A stretch of 64,000 bases of DNA. It comes from Eledone cirrhosa (lineage: Eukaryota). Of this stretch, positions 3,537 to 61,936 are shown in pieces (position 1 is the first letter of the stretch; every line of letters begins with the position of its first letter). The DNA lies in contig OZ024742.1 in assembly GCA_964016885.1 (NCBI GenBank), positions 248,248,001-248,312,000 on the forward strand. The letters are read 5' to 3'. The notes below the pieces were generated by a model. The model worked only from the letters and a program-made list of their open reading frames with translations, made no database searches and was not told the DNA's origin. Both the position numbers and the translations under genes were made by a program.

Positions 3537-3681
3537 ATATTTATTAAAATAACAGATTAAAGTTTAAGCAAAGAATCGCTGCTTTCACCCTTAACAGGAT
3601 ATTCTGAAACTCAAAAGATCCCGTTAAGGGTGAAAGCAGCGATTCTTTGCTTAAACTTTAATCTGTTATTTTAATAAATAT
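3537..3681. repeat. Inverted pLTR-like pair (family F), 64-bp arms 3537-3600/3618-3681
   Basis: One mismatch between arms; arms begin with AGA TCCC GTTAA GGGT GAAA (3' half of a hammerhead); ends at (TA)n. Confidence 0.85.
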
Positions 3682-4231: not shown

Positions 4232-5830
4232 TATATATATATATAGTATACAAGAGAAAACACAGGTAAGCATTAAGAATAATAAACAAGTAAGACTACG
4301 TTAATACTCTCCTATTTATTTTATTATACGTATTTCGACGATGTATTGCCTTTGTTTAACATGTGCCAACGTGTCATCTTCAGATAAAATCCACACGCGA
4401 TAAAAAAAAATCCGTTGATATGCGACCGGTCGCACGAATTATTCATTTCGGCGACTGGCCAGCAGATCATGTATGAGTTGGAAATATATCTTACATTTGG
4501 CGTTGCTATTTCTGAACTGGCTAGGGTTTTGGGTTACAGGATTGGTCAATTAGTTCAAAGGGAAGCATGCATGGATTGTTAGTCTAGTTTTTCCTTTTAT
4601 GCGAGATTCAATTCACTTAACTATTATTTCAAGTTTTAGATATTTATCCATAGATGCTGATATTATAATGTAAATAAATATGAAAGAATTTTGAATTACT
4701 TATTTCATAGTCTTTTTAACTCTATTTACGTTTTAACTATGAAATATCTTGCTGATTTTGTGCAGACAAGAACTAAAACTTTCTGTTTATTTATAATGTT
4801 TTTATAATGTTATGTCTATTGTGTTTGGTGTGGAGGATCTCTGTGGTACAGAGATCACACCCATTTAGATATAGATGCATTTGTGTATGGAAAAGTGTGT
4901 GAGAGTTTTTGCCAAGAAAGGGAATATTCAACATTTTTATTTTTAAACGACCAAATCAGTTCTGACAGGGCCGTTCTACATCTTTTATCTTCTCTTTTAA
5001 ATGAGTGGCGATGGTTGTACCACCTTTCCTTAAATCTAGTGGAAGTTGCGCCAATATAACTATAAGACTCACTACTAGTTTTTACTTTGCACCTATATTA
5101 TTATCTAGAGAGTTATGATTAAATGGGCAAATATTACTATTTCTACAGTTGCAGTTATTTCCGTTACCCTTCGAATTTCCATCCCTAGGTTTATCTTATC
5201 TATGTTAACGGCTTTATCCCTTTTATTCGAGTTTCTGTTTATTCTATGAACGCTTCAATGTTTGCTATAGTGAGTTAACTTCCTATGTTTAATTCCTAGA
5301 TTTCTATTGTTAATTTTCGCTATATTCTGGGCTATGTTTTTGATAGTCGAGTAGGAAATTTGATTATGTGTCGGTTATAGATTTTACTGTATTTATGTGA
5401 TCTGTTAAAACACCTATCTAATGCATTAAAGAAAAGACTAGCTAAGATATTTTGAATTCCAAGGGGGTGGGGTGTATTATACCACAGAATGGAGCGGGAT
5501 CTAACACCCTTATGCAACTTTTTGGTGGTATTCGAGTTATATCCGTTTGAAATCTGATTTGTCCTGAGGTTATTGGTTTGGGTGGGAGTACCCACATTAT
5601 TTCGATTGCCATTAACTGTATGTATGCAAGTGTTAATAACTATGGGTTGTTTTTTTCTGTGAGAGTGTGTAATTATATTTATCTATATTCGTGTACTCAA
5701 TTTTATGCTGGTAGCCTTCTCTAGTTAATGCATTATTATAGTATCTAGACTTACTATCAAATATTTCCTTGTTAGCTGAAAGTCAAGAGATTATCAGCTC
5801 TACATTATTGACTATGGCCTTCTTAAAGTA
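4232..5830 (-). mobile_element. Decayed 5'-truncated Penelope-like element (linker/GIY-YIG region plus 3' pLTR)
   Basis: ORF 5332-5595 RSILWYNTPHP...FFNALDRCF...HKYSKIYNRH matches the WFNPP..TN.G..FL...D.HF...H....IFNR motif also seen at 25753-26064; (TA)n at both ends; hammerhead downstream. Confidence 0.8.
4318..4390 (-). ncRNA. Hammerhead ribozyme motif in the 3' pLTR of the 4.2-5.8 kb PLE
   Basis: attttat CTGAAGA t GAC-loop-GTC GAAA TACGTA TA ataaaat: perfect 7-bp stem I, palindromic stem III ATACGTAT. Confidence 0.85.
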
Positions 5831-22345: not shown

Positions 22346-22427
<82 letters not shown>

Positions 22428-22734
22428 TATGTCTGTGTGTGTGTGCAAGACAGAGAGTGTGTGTGGTTCGTGCGATTTCTTTACAAATGTGAGGAAATAT
22501 TCCCCATACCAAAACAGAATATATCATATTTTATATCGATAACATTATTCTTTGTTGCTATTCTGAGCTTCGCTGATTTACATTTACGTTGATTAGTGTC
22601 GCGTGTTCAGATGGAAATCGTGAAGATTAGAGTAGGAGTGGGCAATTTCAGTATTATAACATATACAATCTTCCTATATATGCCAATGGTCAGAACAGCT
22701 AGAGTACCACACACACTCAGACACTAATATATAT

Positions 22735-22782
22735 CAGCCTGATTGAGTTGGGGTGCACAACCCAACAAAACGTAAGTACCTG
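22735..22782 (+). ncRNA. Hammerhead motif with expanded core (family H); mirror copy 23314-23360 (-)
   Basis: Two-arm consensus cagg CTGATTGA GTTGGG-gtgcacaa-CCCAAC GAAA CTTAAG TA cctg; each arm carries different decay mutations. Confidence 0.7.
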
Positions 22783-22918
22783 TATATGTCAATGTTGTAA
22801 CTAATATTTAACTCATCCTATGGACTGAGATGTCTTACCCTTGGATATTTCTACCAAACTTATACTACAGTGTATATATATATATATATATGTATATATC
22901 TACCAAACTTATACTACA

Positions 22919-22972
<54 letters not shown>

Positions 22973-23033
22973 CTACCAAATTTATACTACAGTGTATATA
23001 TATATATTTATTTATAAAACTGTTATATATTGT

Positions 23034-23096
23034 ATTTTGTCTCATGAAGGCATACCATAATGTAACTTGGTATCCTTGAAATATATATAATGAAAT
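23034..23096 (+). ncRNA. Hammerhead-like motif (family B subfamily, core CTCATGA)
   Basis: attttgt CTCATGA AGGcATACCA-loop-TGGTATCCTt GAAA TATATA TA atgaaat. Confidence 0.6.
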
Positions 23097-23173
23097 AAAT
23101 ATGGTTTTATAAATATAGTTTCCATTTATTAATATCGTATATATATATATATTTCTACCAGACTTATACTACA

Positions 23174-23223
<50 letters not shown>

Positions 23224-23678
23224 TGTAGTATAAGTTTGGTAGAAATATCCAAGGGTAAGTCAACTCAGTCCATAGGACGAGTTAAATATAATTAGTTACA
23301 ACAGTGACATATACAGTACTTAACTTTCGTTGGGTTGTGCACCCCAAGTCAATCAGCCTGATATATATGTGTGCGCTGAGTATATGGCTAAAACAGCACG
23401 ACGTGCTGTGACCAGCGGCGCCGATTGGCGCCCGAAAGACTGGTCGGTCAAGGTGATCAAGGTGATTTGCTTTTATCCTTCTATGTTGTTCACTTGTCCC
23501 CCTCGCTTTAGGCGAATTACTGGTCCCAATAACTTTTTTTAGTTATTGCGCGCACCAACCTGAAGTATCTGATTTTTAATGCGATGAAATACCAACGATG
23601 GTTGGAAAATCACTGACGAAGGACTATTTTAATCATATGTAACCTATGTGCAACCACGCAGTATTCTTCTTTCTTCTC

Positions 23679-23718
<40 letters not shown>

Positions 23719-25141: not shown

Positions 25142-26420
25142 GATGTGTATAGTTATAGGAACAGGAAGGACAACCGTACGAACGCGCATGCGCAGAAACT
25201 CGGTCACTTCACACAGGCAATACTAGACTGCGTGCGAGGGGTGTAAGGAGGATAACTGCGAAAGTCCGGAAAGTTTTGGGGTTGAAAATAAAATTTAAAA
25301 ATTAAAAATAAAATTACAAAGAATCAGTCCGGAGCTTTGTAGTTATGCAATAGATGTCTGGTGACGTGTGGACAACGTGTGAAAAATTCACTTCTCGTGT
25401 TTAGGCAATCACTATTGCGTAATCTCTTTAGGAAAGTTATTCGTTCGTCAATACATTAGCCACACGTCGGATTTCCCCTTGCGTATGGCTTGGACTTAGT
25501 GATGGCTTTCCATTGAATGGAGTACCCTATACTTGAGTTATTGAGAGACCATGCGTGGCTCGCGAGTTTCGTGGATGAACGTCTGTCCGGGTATCTGAAG
25601 GTAGACTGGCGGTTCAGGAAACGCTCCTTGAATCGGCCCTCCACCATGCCCACATGGGATTTGACCTCCTAAGGTCCGTTTGGTCGGTTGGAAGTGACCA
25701 CAGCTTCATAGATTAAAGCTGGTGTGTTGCATTGTTGTTGAAAGGGGTAAGCTTAAGGCTTACGGCAAGAGCACCCTGGTGGGGTGTTACTCCTAGGGCT
25801 GCTGGTGATGTGGGCCTTCATGTTCTTAGCGCAGTAGTATCCTAGTTTAAATTTGTGTCGGTTAAAGATGGAGCAGTATTTATGACCTATGAGGAAGTGT
25901 CTATCTAAGAGGTCTAGACATTTTTTTCCTACATTGGTTTTAACGTTGAGTGAGAAGGGATGAGAGAACCAGGTAGTTTGTCTATTGACGCGCTTACTTT
26001 TCTTAATGGTGTTGTTGCTAGTGGGAGAGTAGGTGATAGGTTGTGAGAAGCCGATGTTAGCCAACGCCGTGTTATAGTAGGGTGCCGCCCTGTCAAAGAT
26101 AGCCTTATTATTGACGAATGAATAACTATCCTAAAGAGATTACGCAATAGTGATTGCCTAAACACGAGAAGTGCATTTTTCACATGTTGTCCACACGTCA
26201 CCAAACATCTATTGCATAACTACAAGGCTCCGGATTGATTCTTTGTAATTTTATTTTTAATTTTTTTATTTTATTTTCAACCCAAAAACTTTCCGGACTT
26301 TCGCAGTTACCTCCCTTACAACCCCCAGACGCAGTCTAGTATTGCCTGTGTGAAGTGACCGAGTTTCTGCGCATGAGCATTCGTACGGTTGTCCTTCCTG
26401 TTCCTATAATCATACACATC

Positions 26421-26460
26421 CCGAGCTGAAGATCCGCGAAGGTGAAACAATTGTTCTCGG
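26421..26460 (+). ncRNA. Hammerhead ribozyme motif (family A)
   Basis: ccgag CTGAAGA tCC-gcgaa-GGt GAAA CAATTG TT ctcgg: perfect stem I, palindromic stem III ACAATTGT. Confidence 0.85.
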
Positions 26461-26554
26461 TATGGTGAACTAACTGTTGTGTAACCACCTCCACCTAACT
26501 CGTCCCTTGGACTGAGTGCTCTACCACTACGGATATTACCTTCCAGTGTTCCAC

Positions 26555-26606
<52 letters not shown>

Positions 26607-29006: not shown

Positions 29007-31460
29007 ATTCTCATTAAACTAGCTCATCGGGATCTACGAACACTTAAATTAATATTAAGGATATATTACCCTCAATTGTACATCGTAAGCATCCATTGGG
29101 GCCGGTGTAAAATGTCATAATGACCTAAGAGACAATCTAAGTTTAAAGGGAAATAACTGCACCTAGAATTTAATTTGGTTAGTAAACAAATATCCTGCGG
29201 TAGCCCCCCAAAAAATATAATAGTAAAAATAAAAGTTATTGTAAAAAACAGTAAAGAAATAAAACGACTGGTAAGTTAAACTATAGGTTTGGATGAATGG
29301 GACGGCAAAGAGAGGGGGGCATTACAAGAGATCAGAAAACACCCGAAATATTAATCCCTTTCGAATATGCGCCCATCAAATTGCATTCAAGTAGGATCGA
29401 AAGTTGTGTGGTAGAACGATTGGAAAATGTTATTGTTGCAAGAGGGAATAATCTCATTCTTGAAGTTTATCAGGGCGATATTGGATGTGAAAATTTCCAA
29501 ACACAAATCACAATTTTTCCGTCGTATATGATAAGGTTTGCTAGAGTAAACTAAATCCCATTTACGGATGTAGTTTATATTTCTACTTTTTAAATCCCAC
29601 ATCTGTTTAACTATAGAAGTTGTGCATCTTATTTTTTCGTTCTTAAAAGAGTGGATGTGTGAGTAGAATATCGCCTTGAAGCAAAAAATAGCTTTGGCAT
29701 ATTAAAAGTGAATTGCGTGTGGAAGGTTGAACCTGATGCACATTTTCTTCTATTATTCTGTATGTTATCTAGCTGATTCTGCAATTCATATATATGTGTG
29801 CCACAACTATTATTAAGAGTATTCTGGTAGTGGTCCGGAATACCTTCAGTATTTCTATTGTGAGGTTTGCCATAAATATTGGGTTTACAAAAGGGGAGAC
29901 TGGTTTTGTAAATTTTCGTCAATATTCCCAAGTATATGCTTAGAATTTGGGAGATCAACAGAAGGGTGGTTATTCTGTTGATTGACATTATTGGTGTTAG
30001 AGCTACATATATTATGGAGCCTTTTTATGTCCCGGTATTTACTGTTATTTGACGTATTGGGTTTACCTAATTTCCTAGATCCATTATTATAAGTATTGTT
30101 ACTACGAATCCTATGGTTATTATTGTACGTTATGTTGTTTCTAGAAGCTTACATGTCTGTGTTGAAGAAGTACATCTTCTCAGCATAGCCTGATCTCGCA
30201 AGGGTTTCATTGGAGTGTTGAGCATTAAGATCAAAAGTCGTCCCGTTATCAGACAGCCTGCAGATCCTTTACAAACGGTTTTGATAATAGATCTAATAAT
30301 AGCTTTCGGGTGTTTTGCAATCTTATAGATATCCTAGTGGTACTCAACAGGCCTACAAGGTTTTGTGGTTAGGTCTAAAGTAACATCTAAAAAGTTGACT
30401 ACCTTAGTGATATTATTTAGGGTTATACTTATAATATAAGTTTTGTAGAATCTGTGCATACGATGTTTAATAACTTCGAGTCTGAAGTTGCTAATATATG
30501 TGAAGTAAAATAAAGCATCACGTCTGTATACGCCACGCTCCATATCGGGAAATTATTTGATTAAATTCTTCAGCAGGAAAAGCTCAACTAAGTCGGAGAC
30601 CTGCACACAGCCGCTCGACTTCATAGTGATATCGAAGTTATTTGGGCAATTAATCCTTGTCCAGTGGCTACCGTCAAATTCTATTAACGTGCATTTAGCG
30701 GCCATGATAATATCTATTTCCAGCCTAGTGAGAATTCGTGTATTTCTTGGCCATTGTAAGGGCCCATTTACTAGGTCAGGGGTGATAGAAGCATAATAGT
30801 TGTCTATATCAAACAGGAAAAATTAGAATCAGGCTTTTTACAGAGGTACTTGAACCAATTAATTACTTGACTGGTGTTCCCCATACGTTACCTTTTTACT
30901 GATAGGTGCGGATAATTCTATCTGGGATATGTTTGCTTGTTCTACCCATATATTAGGCATATTAGCCTAAAAGACGGGTAGTATTGAAATTATCTTTATG
31001 GTCCTAAGGGCAAACCTTGGTGCTTTTGGGATGTTAGGCAGTGTACTTACAAAATCTAATTGTTCGACCAAACATTTACACAGTGTATTCATCTCAATTA
31101 AATTCTCCTAGATATTTGTTTCGTGATATTTACTTACCTCTCTATTTATGGAGGATTCTTAGATTTCAAAGCTCATAGTATAAATGTTTAAGTTTTATCG
31201 GCTAGGACTTGTATATTGTTATGGTTTTTAAAATTAGTAGCATTTAAAAATGGTAGCGTTCAATATTTTGAAGAGAGGATTGTTATAAGATGTTTTTTCC
31301 TGAATTCGATGTATTTTTTGATGAAATTAAACAGCCCATTATCACATCGATCCAGACTTGAATGTGCAAAATCCAAATATGTGTGGTTGTGAGTTACTGC
31401 CATCATGGTTACATGGTTTCTTATCATAAGGAAACATTTTTCCATCTGACTCTTCTAATG
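29007..31460 (-). mobile_element. Near full-length decayed Penelope-like element (RT + GIY-YIG)
   Basis: Minus-strand FDIDNYYASI (RT motif A), FDITM...VSDLVELFLL (B), GVYRRDAL (C, YRDD-like), VNFLDVTLDL (E), then WDLK...W......KPY....KNCDLCL (EN C-terminus); many stops and frameshifts. Confidence 0.9.
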
Positions 31461-33379: not shown

Positions 33380-33454
<75 letters not shown>

Positions 33455-33466
33455 TGATTACACATC

Positions 33467-33672
33467 AGTTAGTTCACTGAACCGAGAACAATTGTTTCAC
33501 CTTAGCTGTTCCTCAGATCGGATTACGAGGATCTGAGGATCTGCTAAGGTGAAACAATTGTTCTCGGTATGGTGAACTAACAGTTGTGTAACTACTTCTA
33601 CCTAACTCGTCCCATCGTCCCATGGATTGAGTGCTCTACCACTACGGATATTACCTTCCATTGTTCTACCAC
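33467..33672. repeat. Compact head-to-head family A pLTR pair with two hammerheads (33482-33521 -, 33528-33567 +)
   Basis: Both arms read CTGAGGA...ctaaggt GAAA CAATTG TT ctcgg; the right arm carries the distal extension ending ccac(TA)n as at 26557. Confidence 0.88.
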
Positions 33673-33693
33673 TATATATATATATGTATATAT

Positions 33694-34111
33694 ATTGTTA
33701 TACTTGGGGAGGGTCATATTTGAGTAATATTATTGTCAGAATTAATAACAGGACACACTCACTGTTTGGTTGGTTTTCGCTTCTGTGTCTTTACATCGGT
33801 TAATTTAATTTTTTTTCTTCGGTCCTCAATGTTACCATTGACTGACCAACGGTCAAAAATACAGATATAATATAGACACAAACACATATATATAGTTTAA
33901 CAAAGTTCTATCGTTGCACATCTGCAACATCGTCATAAAAGACACCGATATAAAAGACACAGAAGCGAAAACCAACCAAACACTGAGTGTGTTCTGTTAT
34001 TAATTCTGGCAAAACTATTCACAAATATGACCCTCCCCAAGTATAACAATATTTGTTTCAACACACGATTCCATATCAAAAACCTCGCAAAACTAATTCA
34101 TCGCCGTTATG

Positions 34112-34145
<34 letters not shown>

Positions 34146-34310
34146 TATACATAACGGCGATGAATTAGTTTTGCGAGGTTTTTGATATGAAATCGTGTGT
34201 TGAAACAAATATTGTTATACTTGGGGAGGGTCATATTTGTGAATAGTTTTGCCAGAATTAATAACAGAACACACTCACTGTTTGGTTGGTTTTCGCTTCT
34301 GTGTCTTTTA
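33694..34310. repeat. Three alternating-orientation copies of pLTR family C (33694-33935 -, 33945-34109 +, 34152-34310 -)
   Basis: Shared gaccctccccaagtataacaata and gacacagaagcgaaaaccaaccaaaca; further copies at 34619-34855 and 53806-53960. Confidence 0.9.
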
Positions 34311-34817
34311 TATATATATATATATATATATGTAAAAGTTGTATTTAAATTTTTGGGATACGACAAGCAAATATTTTTATAACTGATATAAAGCACTCAA
34401 CAAATAATTGGAGTAAAAATACGATATTAACAAATGGAAACTATATTTATAAAACCATATTTATTTCATTATACATATTTCAAGGACACCAAGTTAAATT
34501 ATGTTGTGCTTTCATGAGATAAAATATAATATAGAGCAGTTTTATAGATAAATATTGACATACCCTTAAAGAATGCAACCATTACTGTTGGAAGCTCCCG
34601 GATATATATATATATATATTGTTATACTTGCTGAGGGTCATATTTGTGTAATAATATTGCCAGAATTAATAACAGAACACACCCACTGTTTGGTTGGTTT
34701 TCGCTTCTGTGTCTTTTATATCGGTTAATTTAATTTATTCGGTCCTCAATGTTACCATTGACTGACCAACGTCAAAAATACAGATACAATATAGACACAA
34801 ATACATATATATAGTCT

Positions 34818-34858: not shown

Positions 34859-34870
34859 ATATATATATAT

Positions 34871-35380
34871 ATTGTTATGCTTTGGGAGGGTCATGTTGCC
34901 AATAAGAATTACACGCACCAGTTACTTTCACTCCAATTTATTATAAATTAAAATTATAAATTTAAGAATTCATAAATTTTCGGTTGGTTGGTTCCACAAC
35001 CGGACGGTTGTTCATATATTGTCATTCTGTGACCTCTTAAGTGACTGGGGATTCTTGTCTTTGTTTTGTGCCTCTCCTTTGTTGTGCTCTACGCCATTTT
35101 GTTTTTATATAAAAACAAAGGAGAGTCACAAAACAAAGAAAAGAATCCCCAGTCACTGAAGAGGTCGTGTGACGAAAGAACTTTGACAATATATGAACAA
35201 CCGTCCGGTTGTGGAACCAATCAACCAACCTGAAATTTATAAATTTAATTTATAATAAATTGGAGAGAAAGCATGGGTGCGTGTGTTTCTTATTGGCAAC
35301 ATGACCCTCCCAAAGTATAACAATATCGGTTTCAACACACGTTTTCAGATAAAGAATCTTGCTAAACAAATTCAGAAACG

Positions 35381-35383
<3 letters not shown>
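34871..35383. repeat. Head-to-head inverted pLTR pair (family D, related to C), about 220-bp arms
   Basis: 34871-35095 vs 35113-35325 reverse complement with indels; right arm extends about 58 nt to cagaaacgaaa(TA)n. Confidence 0.88.
35152..35187 (+). ncRNA. Compact intact hammerhead motif (family D)
   Basis: gtca CTGAAGA g GTC-gtgt-GAC GAAA G-AA-C TT tgac; all three stems paired. Confidence 0.85.
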
Positions 35384-35468
<85 letters not shown>

Positions 35469-35566
35469 CGTTTCTGAATCTGTTGAGTAGTCTCCACAAT
35501 ATTACACCAAGATTGACCATACGGAATAATGAATTCTATCCAGTGGTGAACCAACAAACCTAAAAA

Positions 35567-39963: not shown

Positions 39964-40058
<95 letters not shown>

Positions 40059-40151
40059 GGACACAGTGACCCTGACCACCAGGGCAAGTGCCCTCTCCCA
40101 GTTTTCCACCTTTAATTTAAAGACACATACTCAGAGTAGGCTTATTCACTG

Positions 40152-41565
40152 GGGCCAGTAAGTGTGGAGTCATTGTGATGAGGAGGGGTAGGTTGAGCAG
40201 AAGTAACGGAATCGAGATACCAACAGGTGAGATGATAAAGGAAATTGACTCTGAGGAAGGATACAAGTATTTGGGCGTTCTGGAGGCTGATGGCATAAAG
40301 AACAAAAAAAATGAAGGAATTGTTAAGAACTGAATACATTCAGAGAGTAAGGAGCGTATTGAAGTCACATCTGAACAGCAGAAATGCCATAAGCGCAGTA
40401 AATTCCCGAGCTGTGTCTATTATTAGGTACAGTGCGGGAATTCTGAGATGGAATGTTGCTGAACAAAAAGAAATGGATAGGAAGACTAGGAAGCTATTGA
40501 CTATCTACAACATGTTCCACAAGAGGAGTGATGTCGATAGACTCTACCTAAGAAGATCTGAGGGTGGAAGAGGTCTTATCAGCATAGAGGACTGTGTTCA
40601 GATGGAGAAAAACAACCTACACAAATACGTGACTGATAGTAAGGAGCCAATGCTCAGAACTGTACTGAAGGAGGGGACAATAGGCCAGGGGATGTCCAAG
40701 GAGGAAATAACATCACGGAGAAAGAGCAGCCTTCAGGAAAAATGCCTTCATAGTACCTTCTTTGAGAAAACTGAATTTAGAGATCTACAGACATGGAACT
40801 GGTTGAGAAGAGGAGACCTTAAAAAGGCTACAGAAGGAATGTTAATGGCTGAGCAGGAGCAGGCCCTCAAAACGAAGTGGTTGAAACACCATATTTACAA
40901 GGAGGAGGCTAGCCCACTGTGCAGGATCTGTGGAGAGAGAGAGGAGACTGTGGCTCACATTGTATCCGAGTGTAAACACCTAGCCCAGACCCACTATAAA
41001 GGCTGGAGACATGATGTGATGGGTAGGGTGATCCACTGGCACCTGTGCAAAGTAAACAATTTACCACATTCTGAGAAATGGTATGAGCATAAGCCAGAGG
41101 CGGTGATGGAGAACGATCAGGTGAAGGTGCTGTGGGATTTTAGGATACAGACGGACAAGAAACTGGAACACAATAGACCTGACCTGGTGGTTGTGGACAA
41201 AGAAAAAGGATCGTGTCTGATTGTGGATGTGGCCTGCCCATTCGACACGGGAGTGCAAGAGAAGGAGAGGGAGAAAATTAACCGATACCACGACTTAAAG
41301 TGGGAGGTAAAAAGGATTTGGAACTGCCATGAAGTCAAAGTGATCCCGATTGTCATAAGCGCACTGGGGACTATCTCCAAAAGTTTCCAGGGATGGTTAA
41401 AGAAAATCGGCACCTTCACGCTTTTTGGAACGCTTCAAAAGGCATGCTTGCTGGGAACAGCAAGAACCCTCCGATACGTCCTGAATATCTGAGGCTGCAG
41501 GTAGTGGCTTGATATTCATTCCAACGGACTTTCCAGTTAACTAACATCAATGACTGAGATTCAAG

Positions 41566-41625
<60 letters not shown>
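40152..41625 (+). mobile_element. 5'-truncated R4/Dong-like non-LTR retrotransposon with (TAA)n tail
   Basis: KC...YKYLG RT end (frameshifted at the A-run near 40305), ORF 40311-41492, about 75-nt 3' UTR, (TAA)n 41568-41625. Confidence 0.92.
40311..41492 (+). CDS. C-terminal part of RLE-type LINE ORF (RT thumb, CCHC finger, restriction-like endonuclease); truncated, not a complete gene
   Basis: 393 aa open: GGRGL, CRIC...ETVAHIVSEC, RHD, LWDF.IQTD...HNRPDL, DVACP, EK...Y.DL, PIVI.ALG. Confidence 0.9.
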   Translation: MKELLRTEYIQRVRSVLKSHLNSRNAISAVNSRAVSIIRYSAGILRWNVAEQKEMDRKTRKLLTIYNMFHKRSDVDRLYLRRSEGGRGLISIEDCVQMEKNNLHKYVTDSKEPMLRTVLKEGTIGQGMSKEEITSRRKSSLQEKCLHSTFFEKTEFRDLQTWNWLRRGDLKKATEGMLMAEQEQALKTKWLKHHIYKEEASPLCRICGEREETVAHIVSECKHLAQTHYKGWRHDVMGRVIHWHLCKVNNLPHSEKWYEHKPEAVMENDQVKVLWDFRIQTDKKLEHNRPDLVVVDKEKGSCLIVDVACPFDTGVQEKEREKINRYHDLKWEVKRIWNCHEVKVIPIVISALGTISKSFQGWLKKIGTFTLFGTLQKACLLGTARTLRYVLNI

Positions 41626-41627
<2 letters not shown>

Positions 41628-55306: not shown

Positions 55307-55673
55307 ATGCATGTGTGCGTTTATATATTTGTGTGTGTCGGCACGTTTATATCTATAGACATCAAAAGGTATGCAAATTTGTGTATATTTGTGTTGCACC
55401 ATAGAACATGTGTGTTTACGTATGTCATTGTGTTTATGTGTGGGTAGAGATGTATGCTGATGTAGGTATGTATGTTGACGTGTGTATATATATATATATA
55501 CACACGTAAACATACATACCTACATCAGCATACATCTCTACCCACACATAAACACAATGACATACGTAAACACACATGTTCTATGGTGCAACACAAATAT
55601 ACACAAATTTGCATACCTTTTGATATCTATAGATATAAACGGGCCGACACACACACATATATAAACGCACACA

Positions 55674-55678
<5 letters not shown>
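55307..55678. repeat. Palindrome, 178-bp arms centred on (TA)8
   Basis: 55307-55484 vs 55501-55678, about 4 mismatches. Confidence 0.92.
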
Positions 55679-57356: not shown

Positions 57357-58400
57357 TCTTCTTCTTCTTCTTCTTCTTCTTCTTCTTCTTCTTCTTCTTC
57401 TTCTTCTTCTTCTTCTTCTTCTTCTTCTTCTTCTTCTTCTTCTTCTTCTTCTTCTTCTTCTTCTTCTTCTTCTTCTTCTTCTTCTTCTTCCTGAGAGCGT
57501 CGTGGGGGCAGAGTCCTCAAACACCCCTTCCAGTGGTTTCTGTCAGATGCAATAATCTCTAGCTGAATCACCAAGTGAGACCAACCAAGCTCTTGATTCG
57601 CCCTTAAATTCTGTCCGGTGATTCTTTTCTGAGACCTTGTAAACACATGCTCGTTGTATATTTCATCACTAAATTCGGAGAAGTAGTGGCTCAACCTTGA
57701 GTGACTCTCTGATCTCGGAGCTACGCACTGCATCGAGTAATGTAGCTCCAAGGACCCTTCGGACGAAACCGATTTCGGCCGCTTGTATTCGTGATCGTAT
57801 TCCTTCGGTCTTTGCACAATATTTCAATATTTATGAACATGGGTAAAAGTTGGTATAAATATAGAATGGACGACAACGAGATTGGTTTTGACATCTGCTT
57901 CGCTTCTGCAGCTGGGTTATTACTGCAATGATTTAAGCCTTCGCTCTTCCCTCTCTCGTGAACATGGTGTAGGCGTCCTTGAGAGAAAGTCCAAGATTAA
58001 CTTCTGTTGAGTTAATTAATATCATGTGGTTTGAAATCTCCAGTCGATTTATTTTATAGCTACCAGTCTTAATACCACTTAATACCCAGCAGCACACGTC
58101 GATCCTATTCGCGAAAATAATGAACAGGAGATGTCACAGTATGCACACTTGGCAGAGTCAGACTCCAACATTGGATGGCTTTGATTTAATGCAATTTGTC
58201 CGAACACAAATATTTGAACAGAAAAAGTCAGGGAATCAAGACACTTACCACCGACCCCATTCTCCTCCAGAACTTTCCACAGCATCGCCCGATGTACGCA
58301 GTCATATGCGTTTTCGAGGTCTATAAAACGAGGCAATGACCCCAACATTTCCCGAAAACCTGCCGCAGTGTAAATATTTGAAGGTGAAATCCTCACTGTT
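57357..58400 (-). mobile_element. Decayed RTE-clade LINE with (GAA)n tail
   Basis: FIDLENAYDCVHRAMLWKVL..NGV.G (RT) and LGWSHL...IASDRNHW...LPPR C-terminus running into (GAA)n at 57357-57490. Confidence 0.8.
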
Positions 58401-58719: not shown

Positions 58720-59625
58720 TCGGAATAATGGTTAGTTTAAAAAATAATGGTTAGCTAAATAAATAATGGTTAGATAAAGATCAGTTAACAGATCAGCTAA
58801 CGGGATGTTTAGTTAATGAAATGATGGTTAGCTAAGATAATAATTGAGGCGTAGTGTAATGGAATGATGATGAACTTAAAGAATAATGGAGCACTAACGG
58901 TAGCTAATGGAATGATAATATAACGGAATGGTAACTTAACGGAATAGTGAGGTAACAAAATGGTTAGCTAACGGAATGGCAATGTAATGGTCAGGTAACA
59001 GAATGATGAGCTAACGAAGCGGATAGCTAATGGAATGGTAATGTATTGGTGAGGTAACGCAATGGTAATATAAGGGAATGTTGAGCTAACGCAATGGAGC
59101 GGTAATATAAGGGAATGTGATCTAACAGAATGGTTAGCTAATGGAATGGTTCTCTAAGAGAATGGTTAGAAAATGGATTGGTAATACCACGGAATGGTGA
59201 TCTAAGAGAATGTTTAGCTAACGGACTTGTAATATAACGGAATGTTGATATAACAGAATGGCTAGCTAATGGAATAGTGATATAACGGAATGGTGAGCTA
59301 AGAAAATGACTAGCTAATGGAATGGTAATATAAAGCAATGGTGAGCTAACAAAATGGCTAGCTAATAGAATGGTATACCACGGAATGGTGATCTAAGAGA
59401 ATGTTTAGCTAACGGACTGGTAATATAACGGTATGTTGATATAACAGAATGGCTAGCTAATGGAATATAACGGAATGTTGATATAACAGAATGTTTTGCT
59501 AACGGTAATATAACGGAAAGGCTAGCTAACAGAATGATAACTTAAGGCAATGGTGAGGTAACGGTATGTTAAACAAAAGGAATGAAAGTAGGTTACCGGA
59601 ATGGTAAAGTAATGGAATAATAGGT
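58720..59625. repeat. Degenerate about 16-bp minisatellite (TAACGGAATGGTNANN)
   Basis: Repeated taac/tgaatgg units; younger duplicated block 59179-59275 vs 59369-59465. Confidence 0.9.
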
Positions 59626-61632: not shown

Positions 61633-61936
61633 AAATATTAATAAATATAGACATTCATGTGATCAAATATATTTTATTATACATATTTCAGAGGTACTGA
61701 CCTATTTCAACAGTACGGCCTGATCAGATAAAATCAGTTGATGCCTGACATACCTTGACTATGTTGATGGTTATAATTCAGCCATCACTGAATTATAACC
61801 ATCAACATAGTCAAGGTATGTCAGGCATCAACTGATTTTATCTGATCAGGCCGTACTGTTGAAATAGGTCAGTACCTCTAAAATATGTATAATAAAATAT
61901 ATTTGATCGCATGAATGTCTATATTTATTAATATTT
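61633..61936. repeat. Head-to-head palindrome (family L), 149-bp arms, 6-nt spacer
   Basis: 61633-61781 vs 61788-61936, 2 mismatches seen; adjacent to a long (TA)n. Confidence 0.92.
61671..61734 (-). ncRNA. Hammerhead-like motif (core CTGATCA); mirror copy 61835-61898 (+)
   Basis: attttat CTGATCA ggccGTACTG-loop-CAGTACctct GAAA TATGTA TA ataaaat. Confidence 0.65.

Follow-up and report, generated by a model that had tools for sequence, protein, structure and literature searches.

The array at positions 22851–23242 of the window (the whole stretch of Eledone cirrhosa DNA analysed here, 64,000 nt) holds five copies of the end of one decayed Hydra-type PLE. They probably arose by local duplication of DNA, at a time when the element had long since inserted. 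The original prediction had favoured a different origin—repeated, abortive copying of an RNA end by the RT, alternating with TA addition—and had named DNA slippage at a microhomology as the alternative. It is this alternative that is now best supported, with one amendment: the microhomology common to the unit and the TA run is the 4 bp ATAT, not ATATTT.

The array is defined by a 22-mer with five matches in the window (chance mean 0.01; none of 100 shuffles reached five). All five predicted copies were found, although not all are the same: the copies starting at 22851, 22900 and (inverted) 23221 are exact, while those at 22973 and 23155 carry one mismatch each, a private change that differs between the two. 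As predicted, the TA runs behind the units differ in length (Table 1). The picture of a simple series of bare units requires two corrections. Firstly, copies 3 and 4 are parted by a stump of a second PLE-type family (family C). Secondly, copies 1 and 5 each end an arm of about 145 bp (arms A and B), both of which bear a putative hammerhead. Furthermore, the true repeated unit is 24 nt long (in copies 3 and 4 it starts two T's further upstream), and the final G of the 22-mer lies outside the family end.

Table 1. Features of the array and its surroundings, in window positions.
Feature	Position	Strand	Description
Outer flank of arm A	22715..22727	+	Non-family; six exact bases plus a partial match to the arm B flank
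Arm A	22728..22871	+	Pseudo-LTR end, truncated on the 5' side, from a decayed Hydra-type PLE of family A
Decayed minimal type I hammerhead motif (putative)	22734..22783	+	Stem I 3/5 pairs, stem II 6/6, GAAA changed to AAAA
Copy 1	22851..22872	+	Family long end plus locus-specific G
Spacer 1	22873..22899	.	19 nt TA, G, 7 nt TA
Copy 2	22900..22921	+	Same as copy 1; 5' junction ATAT, versus ATTT in the family
Spacer 2	22922..22970	.	49 nt TA
Copy 3	22971..22994	+	24-nt unit, one private change
Spacer 3, left part	22995..23007	.	13 nt TA
Family C stump	23008..23137	+	130 bp; second PLE-type family, hammerhead-bearing, very abundant
Spacer 3, right part	23138..23152	.	15 nt TA
Copy 4	23153..23176	+	24-nt unit, one private change
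Spacer 4	23177..23220	.	44 nt perfect TA; hairpin centre between copies 4 and 5
Copy 5	23221..23242	-	Start of arm B, exact match
Arm B	23221..23367	-	Inverted duplicate of arm A, beginning with copy 5
Outer flank of arm B	23368..23382	-	Resembles 22715–22727
Family D end, truncated	23383..23464	+	Third, unrelated abundant repeat (presumably SINE-like), at the palindrome stop; longer copy in L216

The arm is a member of family A, which is dispersed through the genome (2,039 candidates, 40 of them scored). A 21-mer search of the 3.0-Gb genome returned 55 exact and 632 near matches (at most two mismatches), compared with 0 and 5 for reversed controls. Family A copies have a common end and variable 5' truncation, and a TA run of at least 10 nt lies within 12 nt of the end in 37 of 70 cases. 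One locus, L061, carries a decayed full-length copy consisting of a short pseudo-LTR, a broken RT-endonuclease ORF, a 3' UTR, the arm and the end; its two ends are about 2.6 kb apart, and the RT, followed by a C-terminal endonuclease, is physically linked to the end. This copy aligns with the 628-aa open frame of a sister family (L085) in five collinear tblastn blocks, at 41–64% identity. The motif DKT is present in L061 and L083, as are variants of RWK (RWR in L061, KWR in L083). The CxCX5C linker, CxxC, and CxH, around conserved E and N, all occur in the sister frame of L085; CxCX5C is also found in L082, and L061 has CxxC, a frameshifted linker, and CxH without its H. No CCHH motif was matched in the L085 endonuclease by one loose regular expression in one frame.

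The architecture of the arm fits that of a minimal type I hammerhead as described in PMC4209133. Stems I and II are kept in 21 of 30 arms, seven of which also retain the full core. The family A core has two bases, not one, between CUGA and GA (window 22739–22746; L003–L032), and in many copies the CpG that precedes GAAA is decayed. A search of 22400–23700 with Rfam gave 38 matches, all below gathering scores and mostly hairpin-shaped microRNA models on the TA hairpin, with no hammerhead model among them; single-strand folding of four arms gave z-scores of 0 to -1, none significant. At the protein level, Pfam returned no PLE match for four ORF pieces (a single weak zf-RVT match belongs to an unrelated element at 40299) and a PDB sequence search returned 0 matches. 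Atlas neighbours at 0.95–0.99 are annotated with HTH_animal or GIY-YIG, in many cases for fewer than half of their members. There is no PLE coding sequence at the array locus itself; the nearest is a truncated sister-family copy at 25327–26235. Together, the motifs, the linked ORF and the pattern of insertion indicate, at the level of sequence, that family A is a TA-inserting Hydra-type PLE with a putative hammerhead, and hence that the 22-mer had been correctly recognized as a PLE end in (TA)n. We also considered a DNA transposon, on account of the inverted repeats and the TA target; this candidate was rejected because the two arms face inwards, family copies are truncated on the 5' side, and an RT ORF is linked to the end.

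The same end had been taken for the RNA 3' terminus, which it is not. In tandem junctions (L061 and L025), the 22-mer is followed by A and then by the element body, with no TA; it is thus an internal point of the element. The base that follows the end was tallied at 70 family A loci: 59 have A, seven G, three T and one C, as against G in all five copies in the window. That all five have the G indicates that it was copied from one genomic junction. Family A has two stopping points, the long end seen here and a short end about 67 nt upstream, behind which lies a hairpin (seen in L025); most inverted 5' arms stop at the short end. The Poseidon PLE RT is reported to start inside its RNA in vitro (PMC11167929), and by analogy the two family A stopping points fit internal initiation at two sites.

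Arms A and B are 91% alike and form a tail-to-tail inversion, detected by self-BLAST as a palindrome spanning 22715–23381. Alignment with 28 other copies reveals seven changed columns inside the element that are common to both arms (two of the seven are adjacent, and one is found in 7 of the 28 other copies as well). The arms also have in common the G and a short non-family outer flank. Genome-wide, the shared marks occur exactly only in these two arms; two matches with one mismatch show the family state, such that no third copy carries the marks. Since both arms bear the seven changes and a unique 5' flank, one aged genomic copy must have been duplicated. After the shared marks, six private events occurred in arm A and four in arm B. 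The geometry of the duplication is likewise unusual for the family: an inverted arm on the 5' side is found at 31 of 70 loci, and a tail-to-tail arrangement at 0 of 70.

The relative ages of insertion, arms and units point in the same direction. Family A copies lie at a mean distance of 8.5% from the majority, while the A/B split corresponds to about 3.4% per arm. The five units carry two private changes in 110 nt (three if the copy 2 junction is included), where 8–9 would be expected at family age; the probability of so few is 0.005–0.04 if the units are as old as the family and 0.28–0.49 if they date from the A/B split, in a test that is small (110 nt) and at a locus that was chosen for its look-alike copies. 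The units appear, from their sequences, to be younger than the insertion, and the number of their changes fits the age of the A/B split.

A search for junctions at which a TA run leads straight into the unit gave 15 matches at eight loci: the window, a second array (L178), hairpins with one short and one long arm (L187 and L188), and four single 24-nt stumps. All eight break at the ATAT nearest the end. L178 has six units, five of which are identical despite the age of the family. A spacer interruption—a second G—occurs at the same place in four of its six spacers, which indicates that the spacer was copied rather than added. The four TA spacers after the interruption (L178 1300–1680; G000:C12:8289561–8289887) measure 39, 29, 29 and 19 nt, differing in steps of 10 nt. 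A third array, L286, consists of five units of about 55 nt in two alternating variants, with non-element spacer DNA repeated. The G follows every unit in two of the three arrays and two of the five units in the third, a count that we set against duplication of DNA. Among 74 other family A ends (all 52 other exact-match loci and 22 near matches) there is one direct array and one hairpin. L058 was left out of the array count; it holds two longer family copies separated by 590 bp. At L172 and L173 (G000:C4:123.08 Mb), two near-identical stretches lie about 4 kb from each other and represent either a local tandem duplication or an assembly duplicate.

If reiteration were a property of PLE ends, as predicted, it should be rarer at other TA flanks. 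A control sample of 119 evenly spaced 10-kb loci (1.19 Mb) was scanned by script with relaxed filters. Its 1,156 complex TA flanks yielded 15 events (1.3%) in which a unit was directly reiterated with (TA)n, spread over 14 loci. By eye, about ten of these are clean, some with nearly fixed TA lengths (L225, L244); about five look degenerate or are repeat ends themselves (L141, L143, L199, L224, L232). The frequency at family ends (1/74) is similar to that at control flanks (15/1,156; Fisher p=1, with criteria that are not identical and low power), which speaks against specificity. Nor are the control units necessarily dispersed repeats: the L243 unit has nine matches, all at one genomic site, and the units of L245 and L225 have no second copy in 1.66 Mb. 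TA-centred fold-backs occur at seven control loci, four of which (L114, L160, L161, L164) lack a second copy in the same 1.66 Mb. L211 mirrors the window, with direct and inverted copies of a unit and a private change common to all three; as this unit belongs to an interspersed family (100 matches), it was rejected as a non-repeat control. A scan with strict filters (59 loci, 1,697 TA runs) yielded nothing beyond minisatellites of fixed spacer length (L165, L169) and a single near-microsatellite (L161). Rough extrapolation gives 38,000 unit-(TA)n arrays in the genome. A separate observation concerns L208 1219–4654, where two long arrays of a 12-nt unit (more than 50 units) have a TA run and a GA run that both vary by copy.

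The preferred reading, multiplication of one end at the DNA level, draws on the G in 5/5 copies versus 7/70 loci, the A in tandem junctions, the marks shared by the arms, the age of the units, the tail-to-tail geometry, the copied spacers of L178 and L286, the control rate, the confinement of the L243 unit to one place, and the fold-backs at unique flanks. We propose that it would have proceeded in four steps: (i) a 5'-truncated stump of family A inserted at (TA)n, where a G marked the junction, and presumably aged by about 4–5%; (ii) a break or stalled fork in the self-complementary TA may have allowed a 3' end to fold back and copy the arm plus about 15 nt of flank, giving the tail-to-tail palindrome; (iii) strands ending in ATAT could have paired anew with the first ATAT upstream, which lies 24 nt into the element, such that the end, the G and TA were re-copied, after which a unit between TA runs could expand further and each TA run could change in length by slippage; and (iv) a younger PLE, family C, would then have inserted into the third spacer. 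The copying itself may be by replication slippage or by templated repair of the polymerase-theta type. There is precedent for the ingredients: breaks at TA repeats are mended by MMEJ, which leaves short templated duplications (PMC13645644), and polymerase theta makes both direct and snap-back copies (PMC4912351). The insertions reported in the latter have a median length of 7 bp, well below the 160 bp of the fold-back proposed here.

The presence of family C inside the array raises an alternative, which we consider unlikely: that a younger PLE which targets TA, either family C or one of its sisters, cleaved TA beside the old end with its endonuclease, whereupon its RT or host repair copied the neighbouring DNA. 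The template would still be DNA, and copy 4 could represent a long target-site duplication made when family C inserted. Family C is abundant, with about 31 copies per Mb, and lies within 100 nt of 32 of 1,039 TA runs of at least 20 nt. It is found in or beside two of the three family A arrays (inside that of the window and about 70 nt beyond that of L178), but near none of 70 single ends and none of 12 control arrays. The association is post hoc (p=0.001 against single ends, p=0.03 against control arrays), has n=3, and does not extend to L286. A purified Poseidon protein is reported to cut and extend both strands (PMC11167929). Several points weigh against it. The window stump is 98.5% identical to another family C copy, which makes it younger than the A/B split; copies 3 and 4, on either side of it, differ at 2 of 24 sites; the family C copy of L178 is at most 94% like any sampled copy, while the L178 units are identical; and arrays present many TA runs as targets.

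Family C has junctions of its own. A junction search gave 79 matches, and among 30 of these (29 loci) there are five direct reiterations and three hairpins. In L283 and L288, spacer interruptions or higher-order blocks have been copied. In L278 the second copy has a tail that is absent from the first, which fits re-initiation or a second insertion, and L199 contains three head-to-tail family C ends. A broader proposal is that TA-targeting PLEs remodel each other's ends: the endonuclease would cut TA by an older insertion, and the RT would jump between RNA and flanking DNA via ATAT/TATA, writing reiterated or folded-back copies together with a TA spacer, with a minority of young arrays (L278, L199) representing true RT re-initiation. 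We regard this, too, as improbable.

Telomerase-like re-priming is very unlikely at this locus. In that scheme the family RT, during insertion, would have begun to copy the end of the RNA, broken off at ATAT, paired again with TA and restarted, lengthening the TA in the process. The product has the right shape: the long arm is 5'-most, the short units lie 3', and all break at ATAT. The single 24-nt stumps, cut at the same ATAT at four of the eight junction loci, indicate that the RT does abort there; in family C, direct reiteration at 5 of 29 junction loci compares with about 3% expected from independent insertion, and L278 (which fits re-initiation) and the three ends of L199 may be added. 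However, the element runs on past the end with A and no TA, such that the unit and the realignment motif are not both RNA-templated, and the one tested PLE RT starts inside its RNA in vitro (PMC11167929). The G, the copied spacer interruptions, the aged arms and the tail-to-tail geometry need a DNA template. The units are too little changed for the age of the insertion (2–3 changes seen versus 8–9 expected, in a small sample), there is no enrichment over random TA flanks (1/74 versus 15/1,156, at low power), and even within family C, L283 and L288 copy interruptions or blocks. With the G in 5/5 copies, spacers copied and arms duplicated after ageing, the original prediction of an RT that actively expands TA repeats does not hold for this array. 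Re-priming at this locus is largely refuted, while the RT may be involved at some young family C ends.

An assembly artefact at a TA-rich palindrome is more doubtful still. Six sequencing runs were available, none of them long-read; four were compared with the locus, skipping the TA region, and in these no read or contig spans the array (opposite-strand joints from the runs were left out, as they could originate from other family A copies). Against an artefact, the private changes of copies 3 and 4 differ, the arms are 9% apart, a stump is inserted in between, and arrays with the same breakpoint exist elsewhere in the genome. Single contigs of run X1, which may be the source sample, match both sides of the array, at 22600–22788 (two differences) and 23295–23399 (one difference, one gap). 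Finally, five independent family A insertions into one TA hotspot are scarcely credible: the family does target TA and leave 24-nt stumps, and a different PLE did insert here later, but five G junctions at 7/70 each have a probability of about 1e-5, only 632 ends with at most two mismatches exist in 3.0 Gb, and the private marks common to the arms already refute the idea.

The window contains further PLE sequence and other repeats. The truncated coding copy at 25327–26235 belongs to the sister Hydra-type family, is 86% like the L085 frame, and has a 5' inversion; pseudo-LTR ends of the same family adjoin TA runs at 26380–26600 and 33449–33700. A query with the sister-family RT gave 24,805 candidates genome-wide, some with open frames of 600–720 aa, which points to a far younger age than that of family A. 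Coding remnants of more distant PLEs, at 30–43% to the L085 frame, lie at 4885–5827 and 29495–30810. A non-LTR fragment at 40054–41626, between TAA/AAT tracts, has a 397-aa frame with RT thumb, zinc finger and restriction-like endonuclease motif; we take it to resemble the Dong/R4 group. TA-centred palindromes are found at 55307–55678, 33948–34313 and 35362–35487, the first with low-complexity, 178-bp arms that are 98% alike and unlike a PLE end. Others lack a TA centre, most of them being TA-flanked (61633–61936, 3537–3681, 1648–1741, 2264–2597, 33449–33600, 34869–35326); these resemble PLE stumps in a head-to-head arrangement. At 57357–57490 lies a perfect trinucleotide run of 45 copies, and at 58902–59618 a complex 16/32/48-nt minisatellite.

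On this reading the array is ordinary, as the genome may hold tens of thousands of arrays of the unit-(TA)n kind. Its value is as a control: an array with the shape of a telomerase product can form at a PLE end with no part played by RT. It also supplies tests that separate an RT from a DNA origin, namely (i) a shared junction base, (ii) copied spacer interruptions, (iii) unit age versus family age, and (iv) arm geometry. Were the remodelling of PLE ends by other PLEs to prove true, it would connect PLE enzymes with the origin of minisatellites and with the expansion of their own TA target tracts, and would be a first sign of reiterative synthesis by a telomerase relative.

The element itself most resembles the Hydra clade of C-terminal-endonuclease PLEs, which insert in (TA)n and carry hammerheads in their pseudo-LTRs (Craig et al. 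2021, PMC8557442). The likeness to the published description, in the text available, extends to an element of about 2.6 kb, DKT, an RW-basic motif, the CxCX5C linker, CxxC near the end, a pseudo-LTR hammerhead, (TA)n insertion, and 5' truncation and inversion. The supplement lists Hydra-1_Obim, of 2,507 bp and with a (TA)n preference; compared by description only, family A may or may not be this element. The differences are that family A is decayed and that tail-to-tail arms are not among the arrangements in the available text of PMC8557442.

The closest match for the array is provided by transposon-derived minisatellites, as modelled by Haber-Louis and Jurka-Gentles (described in PMC3389668), in which short direct repeats bound part of an inserted element, and this part is first duplicated locally and later expands. 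The array likewise has a unit from an interspersed element, with ATAT upstream, a TA run downstream, a common G, and the same breakpoint at eight loci. It differs in that its bounding repeats are 4 nt, versus 5–20 in the models, in that one of them is a (TA)n tract—which lets the spacer vary freely in length—and in that an inverted copy is present too. The insertions described for MMEJ and polymerase theta (the portions available of PMC4912351 and PMC13645644) are similar in their direct and snap-back copies by a break, microhomology joins and TA break sites; that work is in mammalian cells, and its typical insertions are shorter than those proposed here.

In the open-access literature we found no report of reiteration of PLE ends or of telomerase-like repeat addition at them. 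In telomerase repeat addition, the 3' end of the product realigns on a short repeated motif, and the same array shape would result. For the Poseidon RT, the text available of PMC11167929 reports an internal start and no reiterative synthesis. The array in the window stands apart from both telomerase and Poseidon in its template, which includes a genomic junction and spacer.
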